Shown here one piece after another: positions 5,389 through 62,929 of a stretch of 64,000 bases of DNA. The translations under genes and the position numbers were made by a program. The DNA is from Escherichia coli (GTDB lineage: Bacteria > Pseudomonadota > Gammaproteobacteria > Enterobacterales > Enterobacteriaceae). Position 1 is the stretch's first letter. Every line of letters starts with the position of its first letter. The notes under the pieces were generated by a model, which worked only from the letters and a program-made list of their open reading frames with translations, did no database searches and was not told the origin of the DNA. The stretch lies in assembly GCF_016903815.1 (NCBI RefSeq), contig NZ_CP069972.1; one strand, given 5' to 3'.

Positions 5389-5779
5389 AATCAATCCTCT
5401 TCATGAAATAAACAATGGCACTCACTTACAAACAGGAGTCCACTATCGCAAGCGACTCAACTTAGCAATATCTCTCAATTTGAATGAAAAAAACAGATGG
5501 CATGTGACAGGGAACCGTCCGCATGATGTCCGTGACCATTTAACCCCATAAGCTAACCTTGTCACAAACGGGCGCAGAACAGCCTGCCAGACAGACAACA
5601 AAACAAAAGTCCAAGATAAAACATGAATACCGGTATCTCAATGCGAAGAAATAATCTCCGTAGAAACCCCCATGAGAAAAATATCATATGGGAGAAAATC
5701 GCAATTATCACAGCCAGCGCATTCATTACTTTCGCTGTGTTCTGGCATTAATTATTTTCAACACAAAAAGGAAAAAACA

Positions 5780-5956
5780 ATGAATCTGGTAGACGCCTTT
5801 GTCAAAAAAGTAATATCCGGTCCATATGAAGAATATGGAAAATGGTGGATAGATGTCGAATACATTTCATGGGGTGTTCCCGGGAAAACAAGACTGATGT
5901 TTGACTCAAAGGAGCAGGCACTGGAAGTTAAGGAAGGGTACAAATTTTTAACGTGA
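5780..5956 (+). CDS. Hypothetical small protein (58 aa)
   Basis: ATG at 5780 preceded by AAGGA; followed by strong hairpin at 5971-6001; no recognised domain. Confidence 0.3.
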   Translation: MNLVDAFVKKVISGPYEEYGKWWIDVEYISWGVPGKTRLMFDSKEQALEVKEGYKFLT

Positions 5957-6374: not shown

Positions 6375-6461
6375 GTTAGTTGAAAAGAGATTTCCTCCGG
6401 TCAGGGCCACCCACTCTGTAACGGAACAGTAAAAAAACCGACCTCACCAGTCGGTTTTTTT
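6375..6461 (+). ncRNA. Predicted ~86-nt sRNA, candidate type I antitoxin
   Basis: Starts at the 24-nt repeat GTTAGTTGAAAAGAGATTTCCTCC and ends at an intrinsic terminator (ACCGAC-loop-GTCGGT plus T7 at 6437-6461); no ORF. Confidence 0.5.
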
Positions 6462-13449: not shown

Positions 13450-13482
13450 GGCCGCGCCGGATTCTGGCGCGGCCTTTTTTTT
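13450..13482 (+). terminator. Intrinsic terminator between convergent trbC and nikB
   Basis: 9-bp stem GGCCGCGCC/GGCGCGGCC followed by T8. Confidence 0.6.
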
Positions 13483-16180
13483 AACCTGGAGAAGGCGGTT
13501 CCCAGCGTTTATCCTGCTCCGGCGGAGGCAGTGATGCGTCATCGTTGCTGTTCGCCGCGATATAATCGCGGTAGTAGCGTTCACTTCCTTCACGGTGATG
13601 ATCCACGTCCGGTCGCGTAATCCTGTAGTCTTCGTGACCGGTACGGCCTGTCACATTATGCCAGGCAACCATTTCAGCAAAGACCTGGTTAAATTGTTTG
13701 TCGTTTCCTTCTGGTTCAAAACCCATGCGTGGATCACGCCCGAATAATACCGGTGCAATCAAATCCAGTTTATCTGCCAGCGCATTGCGGTCATGGTGAT
13801 TACGGAAAACAACCCTGTCACCATAATCCGTACAGACAAACTCTCCCGTCCGACGATCACGGAAACGAACACTCCCGTTCTTCTGCAAACGGGCCTCGAG
13901 ATCACCGGTATTACCGTATACCGGCGTTCCGCCCGGTTCACAAAGCACGACACAGCGGTCTGTTGTCGTTGTGCGTGACTTATCTTTACGGCGATCGCGA
14001 TAATCCCAGCCTCTCAGCTGCGATACAGCAGCCCTGTCTCCCTGAGCAGCCTGAATTTCGACCCACTGACGGTAAGAGGGTGGATACCACTTCCCGTCAG
14101 CAATAAGTTTCTGCCGCTCATTCCTGATGTCTTCTTTCAGCCTGATCAATGCCTGCATTCGCTGAACTTCTGCAATGTGATAATGCAGCTTACGTAATGC
14201 CGGATCATCGTACTGCGCACGAATGTGTGACTTCCGCAGACGGCATGCCTGATGAATTTCCCGACAACGTTCCCCATAACGCAGATCTGGTTTACGCCAT
14301 TGTTCACGCCATGCCAGATAGCGGGCACGCAGGTCAGCACGGGCCTCAGCTCTGGCTTCACGTCGCTGCCGGCGCAGCATTGGGTCACGTTTACTGCTGA
14401 CCCCGTACCTGTCACTGACAGCCAGCTCCGGGTTATAGCGACTTTCAGGTTGCACCCTGTCAAACAAATCTGCTGGGGCACTCACAAAAGGTCCGGCCTG
14501 TGGCTCTGCACGCCCCAGAGTCAGATCAGGATGAATGCTGCTGGCCTTCACCGGCGTTTGCTCATGATTAAAGGCATCAACGACAACAAGCCCGTGATGT
14601 TGTTTCTGTAGCATCAGTCCCTGTTGTGCAAACAACTCATGACAACGCTGCCAGGTAAACTCACCCTGTGTGATCATTTCTTCAATCTGAGGGCTACAAT
14701 GGCTGATGCTGTATCCCCACAGACTTTCTTTGTCAGAAAACAGTTCGCGTTTGATAGCCCCCTGCGGCCCCGTACCTGTACGCATACGGTGCCATTCTTT
14801 ATCGGTCGCAGGACAGCTCTCCATACGACGACCACGGAAGCGTTCTGTTGGCGTAACCTGGAGGAAAATATCTGTTGGTACAGGCTGCCAGCCACCATCG
14901 AGTTGATTCACATTGTCGAGCGTCAGCAGTGACCATACGCTGTCAGCACGAACGGGAGTCTGGTTATGATCATAACCGTCACAGATAACCAGGTGACCAT
15001 GCTGAACACGCATCCATAATCCCGCTTCAGCCAGTGTGCGGTGAATAGCCTGGCAGTTTTCCAGCCGTCCTTCCCGTGCCATTTCCGGCAGACGTTCTCC
15101 AAGATGACGACAGGCATACTGCTGCAGACTTTCTGTTTCAGCGATTTTTTCCGGGCGAACATCAGCTGCAATGAAGTCCGGATTATAGCGTCCTGGTGCT
15201 TCCACCTGGCTGAAAATGTCTTTTGGTACTGGCGTGTAGTCACCCATTTTTTTCATGAGTTTTTCTGCACACCAGGAGGGACCAAACGAGTCAAGCTGTA
15301 CACCTTCCCTGTTGCGATCCCAGCCATCCATCACCAGAAATTTTCCGTCCATCTGAGACAGGTACAGACCATCTTCCGCAAGACGACGATGCAGGGATAA
15401 CCAGTCATTTACAGGTTCACTGCGTAAACCAGCGACCGCTGTCTGCGCGACATACTCGCGAAAAGTTTGTTTTTTTCCGCGTGTCCAAGCGTTCTGGCGA
15501 TCACGTTCAACGGCAGTTTTGCGAACGATACGATTTCCCGGCGCATGGACCCAGCAACCGTTATCCGGAGCAAAACCATGCTTCAGTTCAAGCTCACGGC
15601 AGGCACGACTGAGTTTTTCCTGACTCCATGATAATCGGTTCAGATAACCCGTTTCAGGGTGTACCCGGTTAACAGCCACATGGACGTGCAGATTATCTGT
15701 ATCAGTATGCACGGCAGAGACATACTGATGGTCGGCAAGGCCGAGTGATTTCAGCGTATGACGTACACTGTCATAAATCTGTTCCGGACGCGGGCTTTCA
15801 TGTGACTGCCAGGAAAGGATGTAGTGAAAAACAGGATCAGTGTCATCTTTTGCATAGTGTGCCTGCCGGGCAATGTACTCCATATCTGCAGCGGCAGTTT
15901 CAAGAGAAGTACAGTTATGAAAGCAGGTGACACCATAAAAGTTGACCCATTCGCAGCCGTCCTTCATGACATCAACCAGCGCCACGAATGACTCATTTCG
16001 AAGACGTGTCGCATAATCAACAAGGCGACTGAAACGGCTTCGGTGCGGTTGTTCAGCCTGCGAAGAAGAAGATAAATCCAGTTCCTCATCGGTCATGTCA
16101 TCCCGGACAGAGACGTAGGATACCAGGTCTTCGAACGAAGACTTGCCGTCCCTTCTCTTTTTCGGAATGACTGCATTCAC
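13481..16180 (-). CDS. nikB: Relaxase NikB (899 aa)
   Basis: HxH relaxase motif in LHVHVAVNRVHPETGY; GTG start with SD GAGGA; directly downstream of nikA and adjacent to oriT; 899 aa as R64 NikB (recollection). Confidence 0.85.
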   Translation of the reverse strand: MNAVIPKKRRDGKSSFEDLVSYVSVRDDMTDEELDLSSSSQAEQPHRSRFSRLVDYATRLRNESFVALVDVMKDGCEWVNFYGVTCFHNCTSLETAAADMEYIARQAHYAKDDTDPVFHYILSWQSHESPRPEQIYDSVRHTLKSLGLADHQYVSAVHTDTDNLHVHVAVNRVHPETGYLNRLSWSQEKLSRACRELELKHGFAPDNGCWVHAPGNRIVRKTAVERDRQNAWTRGKKQTFREYVAQTAVAGLRSEPVNDWLSLHRRLAEDGLYLSQMDGKFLVMDGWDRNREGVQLDSFGPSWCAEKLMKKMGDYTPVPKDIFSQVEAPGRYNPDFIAADVRPEKIAETESLQQYACRHLGERLPEMAREGRLENCQAIHRTLAEAGLWMRVQHGHLVICDGYDHNQTPVRADSVWSLLTLDNVNQLDGGWQPVPTDIFLQVTPTERFRGRRMESCPATDKEWHRMRTGTGPQGAIKRELFSDKESLWGYSISHCSPQIEEMITQGEFTWQRCHELFAQQGLMLQKQHHGLVVVDAFNHEQTPVKASSIHPDLTLGRAEPQAGPFVSAPADLFDRVQPESRYNPELAVSDRYGVSSKRDPMLRRQRREARAEARADLRARYLAWREQWRKPDLRYGERCREIHQACRLRKSHIRAQYDDPALRKLHYHIAEVQRMQALIRLKEDIRNERQKLIADGKWYPPSYRQWVEIQAAQGDRAAVSQLRGWDYRDRRKDKSRTTTTDRCVVLCEPGGTPVYGNTGDLEARLQKNGSVRFRDRRTGEFVCTDYGDRVVFRNHHDRNALADKLDLIAPVLFGRDPRMGFEPEGNDKQFNQVFAEMVAWHNVTGRTGHEDYRITRPDVDHHREGSERYYRDYIAANSNDDASLPPPEQDKRWEPPSPG

Positions 16181-16190
16181 CGGAGAATCC

Positions 16191-16523
16191 TCAACCTTCC
16201 ATTAACTGTTTACGCAATGTATTTGTAAGTTCGGTTATGGCAACAAGCACTTCTGCGTATTCCTTGTCACCGGTTCTTTTTCCCTGAACAAACAGATGCT
16301 TCTGCATCCTTCCCAGTCTCATTAACTCCTTCAGAAAAGCATCATCTGTCCGGGAGTTAATTCGCTTATTCAGTGCTGCATTTCGGATGTAAGCAGATAC
16401 AGTAAGTCCGGAATCTTCAGCATTCTTACAGATAGTTTCATCCTCATCCGGTGAGAACCGGACCGCTCTCAGGATCGTCTTTTGCCGTCTTTCACTACCA
16501 CTTCTTTGACGTTTATCACTCAC
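16191..16523 (-). CDS. nikA: oriT-binding relaxosome accessory protein NikA (RHH, 110 aa)
   Basis: GTG start after AAGGAG; 110-aa product VSDKRQRSGSERRQKTILRAVRFSPDEDE... typical RHH Mob accessory protein; precedes nikB. Confidence 0.8.
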   Translation of the reverse strand: MSDKRQRSGSERRQKTILRAVRFSPDEDETICKNAEDSGLTVSAYIRNAALNKRINSRTDDAFLKELMRLGRMQKHLFVQGKRTGDKEYAEVLVAITELTNTLRKQLMEG

Positions 16524-16540
16524 GGTCAGCTCCTTACTGG

Positions 16541-16625
16541 GGTGTCGGGGCGAAGCCCTGACCAGGAGGCAATTGTATAATCGCGCGTGCGCGGTTATAC
16601 AATTGCACATCCTGTCCCGTTTTTC
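16541..16625 (+). other. oriT: Origin of transfer (oriT) with predicted nick site
   Basis: Perfect 10-bp inverted repeat AATTGTATAA/TTATACAATT (16571-16604) followed 10 bp later by ATCCTG^T (nick predicted 16614/16615) resembling the IncP nic motif; leading genes then point toward this site. Confidence 0.65.
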
Positions 16626-16755
16626 AGTCCATTATAGCCTGTTATTTTTGTGCATCATAGTCTTATGCAGACGGCAGAGGCAGGGCGCAGCCCTGCCAGG
16701 AGTCAGTTTTTGATGATAAAATCAGGCTTCAACATTAAACGGAGAGAAAGTGCCA

Positions 16756-17091
16756 ATGGCGTCTAAAAAATTTTACTCAGATGATGACATCCAGCTGGCA
16801 AAAGCTGCTTTATCGGAATTGCCAGACCTCACCGCTCAACGGAAAACATTGCGTGATTTTCTTGATGCCATTCGTGATGACATCATTATCCTGGTAAGGA
16901 CAAAGGGTTATACACTGACAGATGTTCGTGACACGCTCAAAAATGCAGGATATGAAGTAGGAGAGAAAGCACTTCGTGACATTATTCGGGAAGCAGAATC
17001 GAAAAAACCATCCCGCCGTTCTTCCTCTAAAACAGCACCTAAAAAGACAGACTCAGGCAGGAAAGATGGCATCGATATGAACAACAATTGA
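16756..17091 (+). CDS. Hypothetical protein adjacent to oriT (112 aa)
   Basis: ATG at 16756 after GGAGAGA; basic Ser/Lys-rich C-terminal tail; unusually on the + strand for a leading-region gene. Confidence 0.4.
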   Translation: MASKKFYSDDDIQLAKAALSELPDLTAQRKTLRDFLDAIRDDIIILVRTKGYTLTDVRDTLKNAGYEVGEKALRDIIREAESKKPSRRSSSKTAPKKTDSGRKDGIDMNNN

Positions 17092-18075: not shown

Positions 18076-18386
18076 GGAGGAGCGAAGCTCCTTCTGCCGT
18101 CCGGGTCTTCGGGGATTTCCCCGCAGTGGACCTTTCCGACGGGGGACGCTCACCACGTCACGGGGCAGTTGTCCGGGGGCAGACGCAAAAGTTTTTGACG
18201 CCTGCGGCAAAAAGTTTTGTGGCTGGTACATCTCTCCCCTGGACGACTGAAACGGGATGTGGTCATGTATGTACCCCCGGAAAGTCCGTCTGCGGAGAAC
18301 AGGCCGCAGTGCGGCGGCAGACAGGCAGAGACAGCTGCGCCATCAGGCGCAGTGGCCTTACACACCGTAAGGTGTGCAGGGAGCGC
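18076..18386 (-). promoter_or_regulatory. Family-1 hairpin repeat, copy A (ssDNA-promoter-like, Frpo/ssi-type)
   Basis: Shares about 300 bp with 21469-21964 and 27812-28310, including inverted arms CCCCGCAGTGGACCTTTCC / GGAAAGTCC(A/G)...GGGG and TTGACGC...GCGGCAAAAAGTTTTGTGG. Confidence 0.6.
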
Positions 18387-18501
18387 CGCATACGGCGCGA
18401 CTGAAGAAAAACGACGGCACAACAATGGCATGTGGTGGTCACTGGCACACCACTCCCGCACAGGTGAAAACAGAGAAAACCGCACGACATTTACAACCAA
18501 A

Positions 18502-18604: not shown

Positions 18605-18856
18605 ATGACCGGCTGGGAACTGCGAATCTGGCGAAAAAGCATGCTCTGGTCACGCGAAAAAGCGGCCAGAGAATTTGGCGTGACGCAGAGAACATGGCAC
18701 GCCTGGGAAAATGCGGAACAGGTGGACGTCACCGTCTGGAGGACCACCCAGGCACTTTCAGTCCGTGACCTGCTGCCTCACATGCAGGGGATGCGTAAGG
18801 CAGATATCATCAGGCGACTGGAAAATGAACTGGGGGAAACGGCAGGGAATGTGTGA
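18605..18856 (+). CDS. Small XRE/Cro-like HTH regulator (83 aa)
   Basis: HTH-like segment WSREKAAREFGVTQRTWHAWE; preceded by paired palindromes; convergent with the Rpn operon. Confidence 0.5.
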   Translation: MTGWELRIWRKSMLWSREKAAREFGVTQRTWHAWENAEQVDVTVWRTTQALSVRDLLPHMQGMRKADIIRRLENELGETAGNV

Positions 18857-18886: not shown

Positions 18887-19069
18887 CTACTGCTCATCAG
18901 GAAACAGCTTTTTCAGTTCTTCACCGGAAAGTCCCGTGACCTCCTGAATCCGTTCCAGCGGCCAGCCTATATCCCGAAGCCGGCAGGCTATTTCCCGCGC
19001 CACTTCAAGAGCCCCTTGTTTAAAACCCTCGTCGAAACCTTTCTGTATAAGACGTTCTGCAATCGTCAT
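18887..19069 (-). CDS. Stand-alone RpnS-like small protein (60 aa), homolog of the Rpn C-terminal domain
   Basis: MTIAERLIQKGFDEGFKQGALEVAREIACRL...TGLSGEELKK aligns with the last 65 aa of the adjacent Rpn; own SD AGGAG; the longer 81-aa ORF would be encoded through the rpn terminator hairpin. Confidence 0.5.
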   Translation of the reverse strand: MTIAERLIQKGFDEGFKQGALEVAREIACRLRDIGWPLERIQEVTGLSGEELKKLFPDEQ

Positions 19070-19092
19070 GCTGTTTGCTCTGCTCCTGCTGA

Positions 19093-19119
19093 CAAAAAAG
19101 CCCGGCATTTTGCCGGGCT
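19093..19119 (-). terminator. Intrinsic terminator after rpn
   Basis: Minus-strand hairpin AGCCCGGC-loop-GCCGGGCT followed by U6. Confidence 0.5.
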
Positions 19120-19131
19120 TTGTGGTTCTCA

Positions 19132-19329
19132 TCAGTGAGTGATTTTCTTCAGTTCGTCATCGGAAAGTCCGGTAGCCTGCTTAATCTGCTCCGGCGTCAT
19201 CCCCATTTTCTGAAGCTGGCACGCAATAGCCAGGGCTTTTTCAAGCGCTCCTTCCATGCGTCCTTCCATGCGTCCTTCCATCCTGCCTTCCTGGCGACCT
19301 TTTTGCTCAAGACGTTCTGCGATAGTCAT
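19132..19329 (-). CDS. Possible intragenic RpnS-like ORF (in-frame internal start, 65 aa)
   Basis: In-frame ATG at 19329 preceded by GAGGAT at -6 to -11 (CATGAGGATAAACTGATG); product corresponds to the Rpn C-terminal domain. Confidence 0.3.
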   Translation of the reverse strand: MTIAERLEQKGRQEGRMEGRMEGRMEGALEKALAIACQLQKMGMTPEQIKQATGLSDDELKKITH

Positions 19330-20058
19330 CAGTTTATCCTCATGCTGCGGCAGACGCTCAGCCAGCGCCCGCATAAATTCCGGTGATACAGAGTCCCCTG
19401 CGTTAACGATGTAATGAATCAGAACACGCACCTGCTCGTCTGAAATTTCCACCATGACCTGCGGGAGTTTGTCCAGCAGCTCCATCATGTCACGATGGCG
19501 GATATGCTTCATCAGCAGCGTCAGTGCGGCCATCCGGCGATGGTTCATGATTTCATTGTCATCAACGACAGTGATATCAACCAGCGGAAACGGCTTTGTG
19601 TATATTTTAGCCGCAAGTGCCGGATTCTCAAAACAGTCCAGCCAGTTCATGCTGTACGGGTACGGGCTGCGCTCACCGTGATAGAACAGCACCGGAATCA
19701 CCAGTGGCAACGTTTTGTGCTGCTCCAGATGTCTCTGCATCGCCGCCACACTGTAGCGTAACATGCGAAAAGGCATGTACAGATTTTCTGTGCTCTGGTG
19801 CTCGATGAGCGTATAAACATAACCATCTTCACCCCCGGTGGTTTTCACGCTCCAGAGGATATCGCTGGCGTACTGATGCAGGTCCGGCTCAACAAAGGTG
19901 GCGGGTTCCAGCTTCAGCGTGGACAGGTCGCACAACTGCCGGTACTCCGCAGGAAGATGCAGTTCCAGAAAATCCCTGGCAACGTCGGGATTCGCCAGGA
20001 ACGACCGGAACGCGGCATCATGCGGCGTGGGCGTTGTGGTGTTTTTCTTCTTACTCAC
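19132..20058 (-). CDS. Rpn family recombination-promoting nuclease (YhgA-like, PDDEXK), 308 aa
   Basis: YhgA-like N-terminal region (LIEHQS...) and conserved C-terminal domain (IAERLEQKG...TGLSDDELKK); GTG start overlapping the stop of the upstream ORF. Confidence 0.6.
   Translation of the reverse strand: MSKKKNTTTPTPHDAAFRSFLANPDVARDFLELHLPAEYRQLCDLSTLKLEPATFVEPDLHQYASDILWSVKTTGGEDGYVYTLIEHQSTENLYMPFRMLRYSVAAMQRHLEQHKTLPLVIPVLFYHGERSPYPYSMNWLDCFENPALAAKIYTKPFPLVDITVVDDNEIMNHRRMAALTLLMKHIRHRDMMELLDKLPQVMVEISDEQVRVLIHYIVNAGDSVSPEFMRALAERLPQHEDKLMTIAERLEQKGRQEGRMEGRMEGRMEGALEKALAIACQLQKMGMTPEQIKQATGLSDDELKKITH
19249..19284. repeat. 12-bp tandem repeat x3 inside rpn (encodes EGRMEGRMEGRM)
   Basis: TCCTTCCATGCG repeated twice plus variant TCCTTCCATCCT; in frame. 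Confidence 0.6.
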
Positions 20059-20444
20059 GGTTCCTCCATCAAATCAGCAGCATCGCAGCAATCATCGCCC
20101 AAATCCCCACAACCGAGAGGACAGCAATTGCGTTCAAAGCCATGACAACAATAGCCGCGTTCTGAGTCACGGCGTATTTCTTCAGCAATCTCTTCTGCGG
20201 AAAGGTAATCAAACTCCTCACGGGCCAGTTCCAGGACCAGTAGATGTTGTTCTGTCGGCAATGTGGCCACAAAATTATCAATAGCAGCACTCAAACGTCG
20301 CTGATATAGCTCATAAACAAGACCACAACGGGGCATTAGTTCTTCGGATAATAGTTCCAGTTTTGAGCGAATTCTGTCAGCGTTGAAAGTGACTTCATCA
20401 AAAGACATATGAAAAGCTTTGTCAGTATCAAAACAAGACTTCAT
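20055..20444 (-). CDS. Hypothetical protein with Cys-rich acidic C-terminus (129 aa), coupled to rpn
   Basis: ATG at 20444 with SD GGAGA; C-terminal CCHGFERNCCPLGCGDLGDDCCD; stop TGA overlaps rpn GTG start (GTGA). Confidence 0.45.
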   Translation of the reverse strand: MKSCFDTDKAFHMSFDEVTFNADRIRSKLELLSEELMPRCGLVYELYQRRLSAAIDNFVATLPTEQHLLVLELAREEFDYLSAEEIAEEIRRDSERGYCCHGFERNCCPLGCGDLGDDCCDAADLMEEP

Positions 20445-20620
20445 TGTTATCTCCAGCCCTCCCGGGCCCTGAATGAAAGAGAATCTGTTTCCCTTTTCTG
20501 TTTTTTGTGGAGACACCATGCAACACAGACGTCGTGATGTTTTTCATCTTGCTCACGGTTCCTCCTGGTAAAGTACCTGAACACATCCTGCCACCTGCAC
20601 AGGCAGACGGCAGGGGTTAA

Positions 20621-20887
20621 TCAGTGACAGACCCGTTCAATTTCAAGCGCGCGGAGCAGGTGGCCCCATTCGCTGACTTTCATGGCGGGGATACGTACCC
20701 GCTTCTGCTCACTGCAGCGTCTGGCGATATGACCGCCCATCGCCAGGACGTCCGGGTTAATCTCATCCGGTGCCAGTTCCTGGCGTCTGAAGCGGGTATG
20801 GCGGTGCAGGGGTTTGTTCTCCCGCAGGCACTCTTCACGCAGACGCTTTACATACTCGGCGGTTGCGAAGATAATTGATGGTCTCAT
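20621..20887 (-). CDS. Hypothetical leading-region protein (88 aa)
   Basis: ATG at 20887 with GGAG 9 nt upstream; basic protein; no recognised domain. Confidence 0.4.
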   Translation of the reverse strand: MRPSIIFATAEYVKRLREECLRENKPLHRHTRFRRQELAPDEINPDVLAMGGHIARRCSEQKRVRIPAMKVSEWGHLLRALEIERVCH

Positions 20888-20979
20888 GGCATAATCTCCA
20901 TAGTTAGTGAATGAGATGCCGGACTTCCGTACGGGGAAGCGCCAGCGGAGAAAGGCAGGGTTTATCGCCCTGCTTTTTT

Positions 20980-21414
20980 TCATTCCGGACAGCGACGCAG
21001 TGCCAGCGCGAGCGCTTTCATCTTCCAGCCTTCCGGCGTGCGGTACATCACCTTCCAGTAGCCGTCGATGAACACATAATGGAAGCGCACCTCTTCAGTG
21101 CTTTCCGTGGCGATGGCCTCCCTGAAAGAACGGTACTCACGCGCCTCACTGTCCATCCGGAAACCACTGTCACGTCCGTAATAAGCCGTCACACCGTCCA
21201 CCGGGTTCTGAAGCGTATGCCCGGCGGGTTTGTCGCAACGGGGACCGAGGCAACGGATATCACCGTGTTCAACCAGGGCTTCGGCCTGCTGACCGGTGGC
21301 ATAGTGGGTATGCAGGATGCGACCGTTCCAGGTCGGCTCACCGTGCAGGTGGCAGTAAACGGTACGGAACACCCCGTCGCGGCAAAAAACGGAAATCGTG
21401 CTGCTGACTGTCAT
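20980..21414 (-). CDS. Hypothetical leading-region protein (144 aa) behind repeat copy B
   Basis: ATG at 21414 with SD GGAGA; the longer 251-aa ORF in the track reads through the GC-rich repeat and is rejected. Confidence 0.5.
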   Translation of the reverse strand: MTVSSTISVFCRDGVFRTVYCHLHGEPTWNGRILHTHYATGQQAEALVEHGDIRCLGPRCDKPAGHTLQNPVDGVTAYYGRDSGFRMDSEAREYRSFREAIATESTEEVRFHYVFIDGYWKVMYRTPEGWKMKALALALRRCPE

Positions 21415-21468
21415 GAAAACGTCTCCTTCTGCTGAATCAGGTCGCCGGGCCGACCGGTTGCTCCCCCG

Positions 21469-21964
21469 GAGGGGCGAAAGCCCCTTCTGCCGTCCACTTC
21501 TTCGGGGTTTCTCCCCGCAGTGGACCTTTCCGATGGGGCAGCGACTGCCACGGCACGGGGCAGTTGTCCGGGGGCAGACGCAAAAGTTTTTGACGCTTGC
21601 GGCAAAAAGTTTTGTGGCTGGTACATCTCTCCCCTGGACGGCTGAAACGTGTTGTGGCCGCTTCAGCCCCCGGAAAGTCCACAGCGGGGAAACAGGCCGC
21701 AGGGGGGGCGGCGGAAGGGCAGACAACTGCGCCATCAGGCGCAGTTTCCTTACACACCGTCAGGTGTGCAGGGAGCGCAGGTCACGGCGCGACAGAGGCG
21801 GCGCGACCGGAACGGTCGCTGCAAGCCTGGTTTTTCAGACATCGGACCGTAGCGGCAGCCCGAAACCGCGCCAGCGGGTTCGGCGGAGACTGGCGGGTGC
21901 GCCAGCAGCTGCCTGTCGGAGTCGGGCCTGACGACCGGATGCCGCCAGGCAGCCGGGAGCCGAA
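21469..21964 (-). promoter_or_regulatory. Family-1 hairpin repeat, copy B
   Basis: About 500 bp shared with copy C and about 300 bp with copy A; long imperfect inverted repeats. Confidence 0.6.
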
Positions 21965-22146
21965 GGGTGTCCCCGCCCCCGGGAGTCAGAACAACAGAAA
22001 CGACAAAACAGAAAAATGCCTCACACTATGACAGGCAGGAAGGGTAGCGCCGCAGGCGCGGCCCTCCTGTATTTCAGGCAGGCGTAAGCCTGCCAGGGTT
22101 TTCCGGGGGCCTGGCAGGCCATCCCCCCGCCGGAGCGGGGAGTAAA

Positions 22147-22659: not shown

Positions 22660-22992
22660 CATAGTCACATGTTCTGCGACACCGGGCGGTGCCGTGCCTC
22701 CATCTTTGCCGGGCCTGCAGGGATGCAAGGGCGCAAGGGAAGCCGCAGCCCGACGCACACGGCTGGCGGGAGTTGGAGGGTGAGACCGCGAAATCTGAGC
22801 GGGTGAACGACCGGAAAATCACGGCAGACGGGAAGGAGGGACCGGGTGACCGCAGCGGTTCATCTTACCTTGCATCCCGCCCGCAGAAGCCCGGCTACGA
22901 TGGAGGCACGGCACAGCCCGCACACGACACGGCGGCCACATAACTGAAAACCCACAAGGCCATGCCCCGCATGGCCGGGTAAAAGCGGAGCC
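22660..22992 (-). promoter_or_regulatory. Family-2 hairpin repeat, copy 1 (upstream of ardA)
   Basis: About 330 bp nearly identical to 31955-32286; about 45-nt inverted arms (GTGCCGTGCCTCCATC...GATGGAGGCACGGCAC) separated by about 150 nt. Confidence 0.6.
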
Positions 22993-27742: not shown

Positions 27743-27811
27743 AAGAACCTCCTGACTGAAAGATGTGAGATAAACCGGATACCGGCGACGGGACGTTCAT
27801 GTGCCCCTTCA

Positions 27812-28310
27812 GAGGAGCGAAAGCTCCTCCTGCCGTCCACTTCACAGGGGTTTCTCCCCGCAGTGGACCTTTCCGATGGGGGCCCGTTTACCGCCTCACG
27901 GGGCAGCTGTCCGGGGGCGGACGCAAAATTTTTTGCCGGGTTCATGGCTAAAAATTTTGTGGCCGGTGCATCTCACCCTGGACAGATGGAACGGGAGGGG
28001 GTTACGTCTGCCCCCCGGAAAGTCCACAGCGGGGAAACAGGCCGCAGGGGGGGCGGCAGGAGGGAGGACTGCTGCGCCATCAGGCGCAGTTTCCTCACAC
28101 ACCGTCAGGTGTGCAGGGAGCGCAGGTCACGGCGCGACAGGGGCGGCGCGACCGGAACGGTCGCTGCAAGCCCGGGTTTTCACGCATCGGACCGTAGCGG
28201 CAGCCCGAAACCGCGCCAGCGGGTTCGGCGGAGACTGGCGGGTGCGCCAGCAGCTGCCCGTCGGAGTCGGGCCTGACGACCGGATGCCGCCAGGCAGCCG
28301 GGAGCCGAAG
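27812..28310 (-). promoter_or_regulatory. Family-1 hairpin repeat, copy C (upstream of ssb)
   Basis: Near-identical to copy B over about 500 bp; homology ends at about 28310, right where the group II intron begins. Confidence 0.6.
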
Positions 28311-31954: not shown

Positions 31955-32286
31955 TGTTCACATATTCCGCGACACCGGGCGGTGCCGTGCCTCCATCTTT
32001 GCCGGGCCTGCAGGGTTGCAAGGGCGCAAGGGAAGCCGCAGCCTGACGCGCACGGCTGACGGGAGTTGAAGGGTGAGACCGCGAAATCTGAGCGGGTGAA
32101 CGACCGGAAAATCACGGCAGACGGGAAGGAGGGACCGGGTGACCGCAGCGGTTCACCTTACCTTGCAACCCGCCCGCAGAAGCCCGGCTACGATGGAGGC
32201 ACGGCACAGCCCGCACACGGCGCTGAGGCCACATAACTGAAAACCCACAAGGCCATGCCCCGCATGGCCGGGTAAAGCGGAGCCTG
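31955..32286 (-). promoter_or_regulatory. Family-2 hairpin repeat, copy 2 (upstream of klcA-like gene)
   Basis: Near-identical to 22660-22992. Confidence 0.6.
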
Positions 32287-50321: not shown

Positions 50322-50574
50322 CCAGTATTTCCCGGCCTTCGGGCCGGGCTTTTTTCAATTCCAGAGAATATTCCGGAGTGAAGCCTGCACGAAGCCATCC
50401 CCACCATGGACTCCCCCTGTCTTTTGATGGAACCGTGTATTTCTTAATGGCGAAAGAAATAAAAGGCTTCACCCCAGAGTATTGATTCGTTTTATCAAAG
50501 GCCGGCCCGTGCCATCACGTGTGGCGGAGAGAACGGATACCGGTCTTCTTTTCATCTCACAGTAGGACATTCGC

Positions 50575-62288: not shown

Positions 62289-62929
62289 GCATAAGTCTAT
62301 CCCCTGTTTATATACTGCCATTGATGTTCACATTTTCCATTATTGGACGAACTCTGCTATTCAGAGTTCGTTATTTTTTATCTGATACGGGACATCTCTG
62401 GTATAAGACACACCCTGCTGTTCTGTCAGGAATATGGCTATACAGTATAGCTGTGGCGTTAATTATTTTATCATCATCACCACTGCTCTACCGTATTCAT
62501 GCTGTCCTTATTCTTTCGTTCATACTGCAAATGGCGGTAACGGATGCACTGACAGGTTTATTACCAGGAACATTCACCCGGCGTTTTTTAATTGCAGGAA
62601 TGCTATCACAAATCACGACTGATATATGGTGGTTCCGTACAACAGAATTTGCCACTGCTGCAATTGTCTTATTCTGCCTTCATAAATTAGTTAACCGCCA
62701 TCGTCTTAATATTGGCACTGGAGACCTGTGGCTTATTGCAGGTATTACCGCATGGTCAGGGTTATATAACGCCATATGGTGTGTGTTGCTGGGCACAGGA
62801 GGATTTGTCTTATGGCATTCAACATGGTGCATAAAAGGGCATAAAGAAGGCCCTCTGGGTCCATGGCTATGTTTTGGCCATGTCCTTTTGCTGCTGGATA
62901 ATCTTTATCAACCACTATGGGTAATCTGA
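62273..62929 (+). CDS. pilU: PilU prepilin peptidase (218 aa from ATG 62273)
   Basis: Polytopic membrane protein after the prepilin gene; SD GGGAGG before ATG 62273. Confidence 0.7.

Follow-up and report, generated by a model that had tools for sequence, protein, structure and literature searches.

A predicted cis-antisense RNA opposite the start of ygdA in the leading region of an IncI-complex plasmid

A 64,000-nucleotide (nt) stretch of Escherichia coli DNA (contig NZ_CP069972.1; hereafter the window), which represents the leading region of a conjugative plasmid of the IncI complex, carries a hairpin followed by seven thymidines on its plus strand, between two genes, ygcA and ygdA, that are both encoded on the minus strand. 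What could a terminator-like element pointing against the genes around it be for? We consider it likely that the hairpin with its T-run forms the 3' end of a cis-antisense RNA of approximately 100 nt directed against the start region of ygdA, and that this RNA is an IncI-complex homologue of AS-pc01. A dedicated antisense transcript end is the most likely explanation, rather than stray read-through, because the module is conserved, a promoter-like site lies on the same strand, and the corresponding element of IncF plasmids is a small RNA (sRNA). The IncI element is currently unannotated, and it would be a mistake to take the hairpin for a terminator at the ends of the adjacent open reading frames (ORFs). 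The features concerned are as follows, in window coordinates.

20621-20887, minus strand: ygdA, the predicted target, 88 amino acids (aa), ATG at 20887; homologous to the IncF gene overlapped by AS-pc01
20847-20875, plus strand: predicted sigma-70 promoter, with -35 hexamer TTTACA (20847-20852), 17-nt spacer and -10 hexamer GATAAT (20870-20875)
20881-20980, plus strand: predicted cis-antisense RNA of approximately 100 nt, putative IncI-complex homologue of AS-pc01, placed by a covariance-model match and by its fold
20881-20917, plus strand: stem-loop 1, holding the complement of the ygdA start codon and Shine-Dalgarno sequence
20918-20946, plus strand: stem-loop 2, GCCGGACUUCC...GGAAGCGCCAGC
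20947-20954, plus strand: purine-rich linker GGAGAAAG, able to pair with the U-run and lengthen the terminator stem
20955-20973, plus strand: stem-loop 3, the reported hairpin and predicted intrinsic-terminator stem, GCAGGG-UUUAUCG-CCCUGC
20974-20980, plus strand: T7 tract, the terminator U-tail; T20980 also complements the last base of the ygcA stop codon
20980-21414, minus strand: ygcA, upstream gene of the same operon, 144 aa, its TGA at plus-strand 20980-20982; outside the conserved module

The hairpin and T-run between ygcA and ygdA

At 20954-20980 the plus strand reads GGCAGGGTTTATCGCCCTGCTTTTTTT, as a preliminary description of this DNA had reported, and the site was correctly placed there between the 144-aa and 88-aa ORFs: it lies in the 93-nt spacer separating the ygcA stop codon from the ygdA start codon. 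The hairpin itself was confirmed, but its arms, given as GGCAGGG and GCCCTGC, were offset by one base, since the Watson-Crick stem joins GCAGGG (20955-20960) to CCCTGC (20968-20973). This stem can be extended by U20961-G20967 on the inside and by G20954-U20974 on the outside. Folded as plus-strand RNA, the element had 7 pairs, a 5-nt loop and a free energy of -12.3 kcal/mol (z-score -3.3) and was followed by U7, giving the structure of an intrinsic terminator with a stem of 6-7 base pairs (bp), 5 of them G-C, and a uniform U-tract. The minus-strand RNA formed 6 pairs with a 7-nt loop at -10.3 kcal/mol and ran into the tail CUUUCUCC, so that a U-tract is present in one orientation only and the element is not a bidirectional terminator. 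This difference in fold and tail between the strands also bears out the earlier statement that the structure is a much weaker terminator on the minus strand.

Hairpins of this kind were rare by chance. A census that required a stem of 6 bp or more, including 4 or more G-C pairs, a loop of 3-8 nt and 6 or more T immediately following the stem returned 6 sites on both strands of the window, compared with 0.33 +/- 0.55 in 100 dinucleotide-preserving shuffles. A general terminator scan did not list the hairpin at 20955-20973; extension of the stem into the A/T flanks may have consumed its T tail. The hairpin and T-run are thus confirmed as genuine, and their function as a terminator is predicted. 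Four further strong sites in the census lay at 13450-13474 (plus strand; 11-bp stem, T8, just past the 3' end of the minus-strand gene nikB), 50331-50348 (plus), 62346-62372 (plus) and 6438-6454 (minus).

A conserved module, a predicted RNA and the AS-pc01 family

Homologues of ygdA at 31-47% identity were found on IncF plasmids and in many other Enterobacterales. We fetched 38 homologous loci (5 plasmid and 33 genome loci; 31-98% protein identity, at least 12 genera), and all 38 had the same layout 85-95 nt upstream of the ygdA-like start codon. Read in the sense of the gene, it comprises a run of 5-7 A (broken by a single G in five members), a GCAG...CTGC hairpin, a flank that is pyrimidine-rich without being T-rich, a second hairpin, a Shine-Dalgarno sequence and the ATG. 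The gene upstream was ygcA in IncI plasmids, a member of a 115-aa family in IncF-like plasmids and DUF1419 in Erwinia, and in Yersinia its place was taken by AT-rich non-coding DNA. Since the upstream gene changes between lineages and can be missing, the module goes with ygdA and not with the gene whose stop codon adjoins it.

Helix and polarity statistics covered 43 family members, with 17 distinct stem-loop 3 sequences in the family. In the terminator helix 98.5% of cells were paired, against 31-53% in slide controls; GCAG/CUGC supplied four invariant pairs, and three of the eight pairs showed compensatory changes (GC29/AU12/CG1/GU1, GC24/CG16/UA3 and AU22/GC13/GU8). Its polarity was conserved as well. 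On the antisense side the run of consecutive T was 4 or longer in all 43 members and 5 or longer in 38, while the gene-sense side never had more than 3; moreover, 14 G-U cells of the helix pair only in the antisense orientation. This polarity argues for a terminator of antisense transcription, as distinct from a mere hairpin.

Stem-loop 2 took the form GCCG/CCGG...CGGC/CCGG throughout the family, around very different inner stems. In the covariance-model alignment 8 of its 8 pairs had changed on both sides and 72.8% of cells were paired; as the subgroups are shifted against each other in the alignment, this value is too low by an uncertain amount, and by eye the covariation was strong. The same loss of register between subgroups affected a MAFFT alignment of the whole RNA, from which RNAalifold recovered the terminator helix only. 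A purine-rich linker of approximately 8-10 nt was present in family members. Individual folds calculated with RNAfold had the three-stem-loop layout, the terminal hairpin being present in every member, and the antisense strand was the more stable one in 32 of 44. Wobble pairs in some stem-loop 2 variants favoured the sense RNA, as is expected if both RNAs must fold.

A promoter-like site faces this terminator from approximately 100 nt away, within codons 5-14 of ygdA. With 10 of 12 matches, it was joint best among 15 promoter-like sites in the 12 kb scanned. Its hexamers were unchanged in 10 IncI variants, one of which is only 82% identical, and the hexamer pair occurred in the same codons with an invariant 17-nt spacer in 15 of 15 representative family members, recurring in an anchored scan. 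Transcription from this site would begin 6-8 nt past the -10 hexamer, at approximately 20881-20883, and would end within the U-run. The resulting RNA (approximately 20881-20980) was predicted to fold into three stem-loops at -37.6 kcal/mol (z-score -3.2), and is complementary throughout to the ygdA start codon, the Shine-Dalgarno sequence and the entire 93-nt 5' untranslated region (UTR). Within stem-loop 1, CAU (20885-20887) is the anti-start and CUCC (20896-20899) the complement of the ygdA GGAG Shine-Dalgarno; together with the terminal hairpin, this constitutes the anatomy of a cis-antisense regulator. In Buttiauxella noackiae (L048, 1333-1500), the ygdA homologue had a tandem duplication of its N-terminal approximately 28 residues (MKDKFIVACQEYFVKQ...), the part that carries the antisense promoter hexamers.

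An Rfam scan of seven distant loci returned RF02875, AS-pc01 ('antisense to pHK01_035'). The match in pO157 (L016, 1357-1458, minus strand) was full length at 79.4 bits, the gathering score being 79, with an E-value of 1e-12, and coincided with the position of the homologous module at the ygdA-like gene; a Raoultella locus scored 55.9 bits. In pO157 the predicted -10 hexamer (AACAAT) stops 6 nt short of the 5' end of the Rfam match. By tblastn, ygdA was 40-47% identical to IncF, Serratia and Erwinia genes, and 45% identical over residues 29-88 (E = 4e-8) to the pO157 gene under the Rfam match, which, judging from the family name, would be an orthologue of pHK01_035. AS-pc01 reportedly originates from a study of the IncFII plasmid pHK01 by Jiang and colleagues in 2017, in which the RNA is said to have been found by RNA sequencing (RNA-seq) and validated.

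The RF02875 consensus consists of three stem-loops. The first holds CAU in its stem and CUCC in its loop, and the last is a hairpin with a U-run. The window has the same three elements, namely an anti-start/anti-Shine-Dalgarno stem-loop, a GCCG...CGGC stem-loop and a GCAG...CUGC stem-loop with U-run, and here too they lie opposite the start codon, Shine-Dalgarno and 5' UTR of a gene of the pHK01_035 family. The length of approximately 100 nt and the position of the promoter inside the first codons are likewise shared. Differences are found in the terminator loop, which is longer in the window (5-7 nt vs. 3-4 nt in AS-pc01), and in the neighbouring genes, which are ygcA upstream and orf154 and rpn downstream in the window, and DUF3560 and a methyltransferase at the AS-pc01 locus. 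Because target-protein homology, identical position and identical architecture agree, the window element was filed under this family, and its sequence suggests a divergent IncI-complex member of AS-pc01, a family already known from IncF and unrecognised in IncI.

This assignment was supported by a covariance model (R1) whose training set was restricted to 34 distinct non-IncI sequences. Its best match in the 64-kb window was at 20880-20980 on the plus strand, full length, with 27.6 bits and an E-value of 7.7e-4, which is a rough figure from a shortened calibration. All 8 other IncI variants scored 28-36 bits. In the alignment to the model, the window RNA was approximately 41% identical to the IncF form. 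The second-best match in the window, 5694-5787 on the minus strand (16.9 bits, E = 0.19), had anti-start and anti-Shine-Dalgarno-like sequences without the hairpin and T-run and was set aside as probably due to chance.

Among IncI-complex plasmids, the window was 100% identical to NZ_CP024254.1 over 1 kb, and approximately 2,000 IncI1/K/B/O/Z records matched it. The hairpin and T-run were constant in 10 IncI-complex variants, save for one stem-closing C/T position and a 1-nt difference in T-run length. The adjacent ygdA 5' UTR, equivalent to antisense stem-loop 1, diverged into two quite different alleles. When L008, L009 and L010 (IncK2/Z and IncI-gamma/K1 plasmids) were compared with window positions 20885-20935, allele 1 had an ATG start, allele 2 a GTG start with a stronger AAGGAG Shine-Dalgarno, and the terminator was identical in both. 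Though their sequences differ, both alleles fold with CUCC in or beside a loop, and the two might not cross-regulate in trans. A 120-aa ORF starting at ATG 20983, which overlaps the ygcA stop codon as ATGA, was considered as an N-terminally extended ygdA and rejected: the 1-nt polymorphism in T-run length means that it is not a conserved frame, and in the IncF-like loci L013 and L014 the upstream ATG is out of frame.

The antisense RNA would then act as follows. In the established, double-stranded plasmid it would be made from its own promoter, with rightward transcription on the plus strand starting at approximately 20881-20883 from TTTACA-17-GATAAT within the first ygdA codons and ending in the T-run adjoining the ygcA stop codon, where the third stem-loop would serve as a Rho-independent terminator. 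Complementary loops would let it pair with the ygcA-ygdA mRNA, and the duplex would either keep ribosomes from binding at ygdA or be cleaved. The established plasmid would thereby hold ygdA silent, and perhaps the downstream genes as well. The firing of the IncI promoter and the exact ends of the RNA are predictions, and translational repression of ygdA is predicted by analogy with FinP/traJ and other plasmid antisense systems.

Weighing the antisense RNA against other explanations

Several observations weigh against an AS-pc01-type antisense RNA. RF02875 itself scored the window at 13.2 bits (20882-20978, plus strand, full length, E = 3.7), below its threshold of 79, and in the scan of 141 nt in which this value was obtained four unrelated families, mainly by matching the terminator, scored higher than AS-pc01, all of them below threshold (e.g., Hrs12 with 19.3 bits). 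An Rfam scan of 8 kb gave nothing at E-values up to 1, and the R1 E-value carries the roughness of its calibration. The promoter score was not significant when synonymous codons were resampled, the observed value being reached in 10-87% of trials (P 0.10-0.87). The conserved protein motif S/F-I-[IVLM], six residues, V-[KQN] itself encodes xAxxAT-17-T(T/G)(T/G)ACA. Since the resampling was not significant, constraint on the promoter and constraint on the protein are inseparable, and the antisense promoter is plausible, without independent support. Both strands form complementary hairpins, so that covariation alone does not tell which RNA is under selection. No transcript data were found in the literature for any IncI-complex plasmid, and no RNA of this kind is mentioned in papers on pESBL RNA-seq in early conjugation, on I-complex transposon-directed insertion-site sequencing and on RNA immunoprecipitation sequencing of FopA on pCol1B9. 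For the IncF RNA, the experimental status given here follows its Rfam entry.

The preliminary description had recognised an intrinsic-terminator-type structure that is weaker in the direction of the genes, which holds, and had proposed two roles for it that are not the best supported. Either role, as a free-standing insulator against rightward antisense read-through or as an attenuator or pause site for sense transcription between ygcA and ygdA, is unlikely. In favour of the two proposals, the structure is a good terminator on the plus strand and a weak one on the minus strand, and possible sources of read-through exist upstream in the plus-strand genes ygeA (18605-18856) and yggA (16750-17091); any terminator would halt such transcripts, its main purpose aside. 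However, the module travels with ygdA homologues whatever lies upstream, rather than with particular upstream or convergent genes, a conserved promoter-like site is located 100 nt upstream on the same strand, and Rfam lists the homologous element of IncF plasmids as a discrete sRNA. Attenuation finds no support in conservation, given the sense-side tails of never more than 3 consecutive T in the 43 members, and the operon already has a canonical sense terminator with T6 after ygdB, at 19118-19100.

Selection might instead have acted on the sense mRNA alone, the module then being a folded 5' UTR or a structure between the cistrons, such as an RNase E entry site followed by protective stem-loops, that processes and stabilises the ygdA cistron; this we regard as quite improbable. 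Both hairpins do form in the sense ygcA-ygdA RNA (-31.1 kcal/mol, z-score -2.9), which leaves the Shine-Dalgarno region unpaired, a G-U pair of stem-loop 2 in the sense RNA corresponds to a C-A mismatch in the antisense RNA in Erwinia (L015) and Buttiauxella (L047-L049), and in 12 of 44 members it is the sense strand that gives the better fold. Such an element would leave unexplained why 5-7 A abut the hairpin in every member when the other flank is never T-rich, why the promoter-like hexamers are conserved in position, and why the documented IncF antisense RNA has exactly these ends; the G-U pairs of the terminator helix, moreover, favour the antisense orientation. Very improbable, finally, is a signal in single-stranded DNA (ssDNA) on the transferred strand that would be used for priming, or as a component of an ssDNA promoter, before synthesis of the complementary strand. 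The element does lie in a leading region, with its hairpin and T-run on the strand taken to be transferred, and leading regions use ssDNA hairpin promoters (PMC12672017). Those, however, are large, imperfect stem-loops of the transferred strand that rebuild -35 and -10 boxes (PMC12672017), whereas the stems here measure 6-12 bp and have no promoter boxes, unlike Frpo/ssi promoters of classes 1-3. The ssi-type repeats of the window are separate elements (18.15-18.40, 21.44-21.97 and 27.79-28.31 kb), and the homologous loci L022, L026 and L045 are on contigs with long chromosomal or unclear context.

The predicted antisense RNA can be compared with known regulators. FinP is a short plasmid antisense RNA with stem-loops and an intrinsic terminator, complementary to the ribosome-binding region of traJ mRNA; as in FinP and traJ, both RNAs at the ygdA locus form complementary hairpins able to meet loop to loop. 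The two are not related in sequence, and FinP has two stem-loops instead of three, needs the chaperone FinO and targets a transfer activator rather than a leading-region gene. Sok/hok and SymR/symE also feature an antisense RNA across the translation start of a small plasmid gene, and the SymR promoter lies just inside the target coding region, as predicted for the window RNA. A type I toxin is a small hydrophobic membrane protein, whereas YgdA is basic and rich in arginine and lysine, has three predicted helices and matches no toxin family in Pfam or PADLOC; a hok-like toxin is therefore unlikely, and ygdA also lacks the fold-back mRNA architecture and leader-peptide coupling of hok. In IncI plasmids themselves, the Inc RNA (RNAI) of repZ is a cis-antisense RNA of approximately 70 nt that acts on the 5' region of its target (PMC7491321). 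It shares with the window RNA the plasmid group and the site of action, but belongs to the replicon locus, differs in structure, works by pseudoknot inhibition and is bound by FopA, whose target list has no RNA from the ygdA region (PMC7491321).

Leading region, target gene and operon

Annotated relatives of the window have the gene order nikB, nikA, (origin of transfer, oriT), yggA, ygfB, ygeA, ygdB (Rpn), ygdA, ygcA, ardA, psiA, psiB. Transcription of the minus-strand genes ygdB through psiB runs in the direction of oriT. Landmarks around the antisense gene are listed below.

13481-16180, minus strand: nikB
16191-16610, minus strand: nikA
21443-21965: ssi/Frpo-like repeat copy, directly upstream of ygcA; outside the antisense gene

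In ColIb-P9, F and pESBL, leading genes are transcribed from the transferred strand (PMC12672017); from this and the orientation of the leading genes we infer that the plus strand of the window is the transferred strand. Three ssi-type ssDNA promoters with mapped start sites drive leading-region operons in pESBL (IncI1; PMC12672017). A repeat of approximately 250-520 nt occurs in the window in three copies with 76-96% mutual identity (18153-18404, 21443-21965 and 27786-28310), each upstream of a minus-strand leading operon, and the copies look like the ssi/Frpo-type (class 1) single-strand promoters of ColIb-P9 and pESBL. By its position, the copy at 21443-21965 is likely the single-strand promoter of the sense transcript of the ygcA operon. 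A further direct repeat of 300 nt (22665-22964 and 31958-32257, 96% identity), whose first copy lies directly upstream of ardA, fits the paired 'class 2' ssDNA promoter hairpins described upstream of ardA and klcA in pESBL (PMC12672017).

In a new host, expression of plasmid genes starts with those of the leading region, and how these are switched on and off is an active question (PMC12672017, PMC11541004). A tentative possibility is that the antisense RNA times the zygotic expression of ygdA through an asymmetry between the two DNA strands. The sense ygcA-ygdA mRNA would be made from the incoming single plus strand by way of an ssi-type promoter, and the template for the antisense RNA, the complementary strand, would be absent until conversion to double-stranded DNA. 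Translation of YgdA would then be limited to a brief single-stranded window, shut off at conversion and kept off thereafter, a post-transcriptional lock on top of the known silencing of ssDNA promoters. Were this so, leading-gene expression would be confined to the moment of entry by a module common to IncF, IncI and many enterobacterial plasmids. The predicted antisense gene reaches approximately 2,000 IncI-complex plasmid records and at least 4,100 IncF records, and the module is also present in plasmids of Serratia, Erwinia, Yersinia, Buttiauxella, Raoultella and others, which would extend the narrow Rfam family AS-pc01 to a much wider one.

YgdA, the predicted target, had no family match in Pfam, NCBIfam or PADLOC, and our literature search found no paper mentioning ygdA. 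Its AlphaFold2 model has three helices with a predicted local distance difference test score of 74, and a Foldseek search of this model against the PDB returned nothing below E = 2.6. No obvious hydrophobic segment was present in this basic protein, and its helices are predicted to be amphipathic. The antisense RNA gene is always tied to this one small, uncharacterised, arginine-rich protein, in many lineages directly before an orphan N6-DNA methylase gene. In IncF-like plasmids (L012-L014, L016), the ygdA homologue is directly followed by an N6-DNA methylase gene or by DUF3560 and a methyltransferase, and in these lineages the antisense module may gate an anti-restriction methylase operon. 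In IncI plasmids a 154-aa ORF and Rpn follow instead.

The upstream gene ygcA was found only in IncI-complex plasmids. Many GenBank records (e.g., CP088445.1) label it 'post-segregation killing protein PndC', a name without support from Pfam, NCBIfam or PADLOC, which we rejected and which looks like an annotation artefact. On the minus strand, a canonical terminator (19118-19100; 8-bp stem with 7 G-C pairs, T6) lies 14 nt after the stop codon of ygdB (Rpn) and is probably the end of the ygcA-ygdA-orf154-ygdB operon; it contrasts with the weak sense-direction tail of the hairpin at 20955-20973. The 5' end and ribosome-binding region of ygdB are repeated with 79% identity before the 154-aa ORF (20016-20067 vs. 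20514-20565), and an 81-aa ORF downstream of ygdB (18887-19132, minus strand) resembles the Rpn C-terminus, with a repeat at 19026-19069 and 19286-19329. Judging from their sequences, these are probably traces of Rpn gene duplication.

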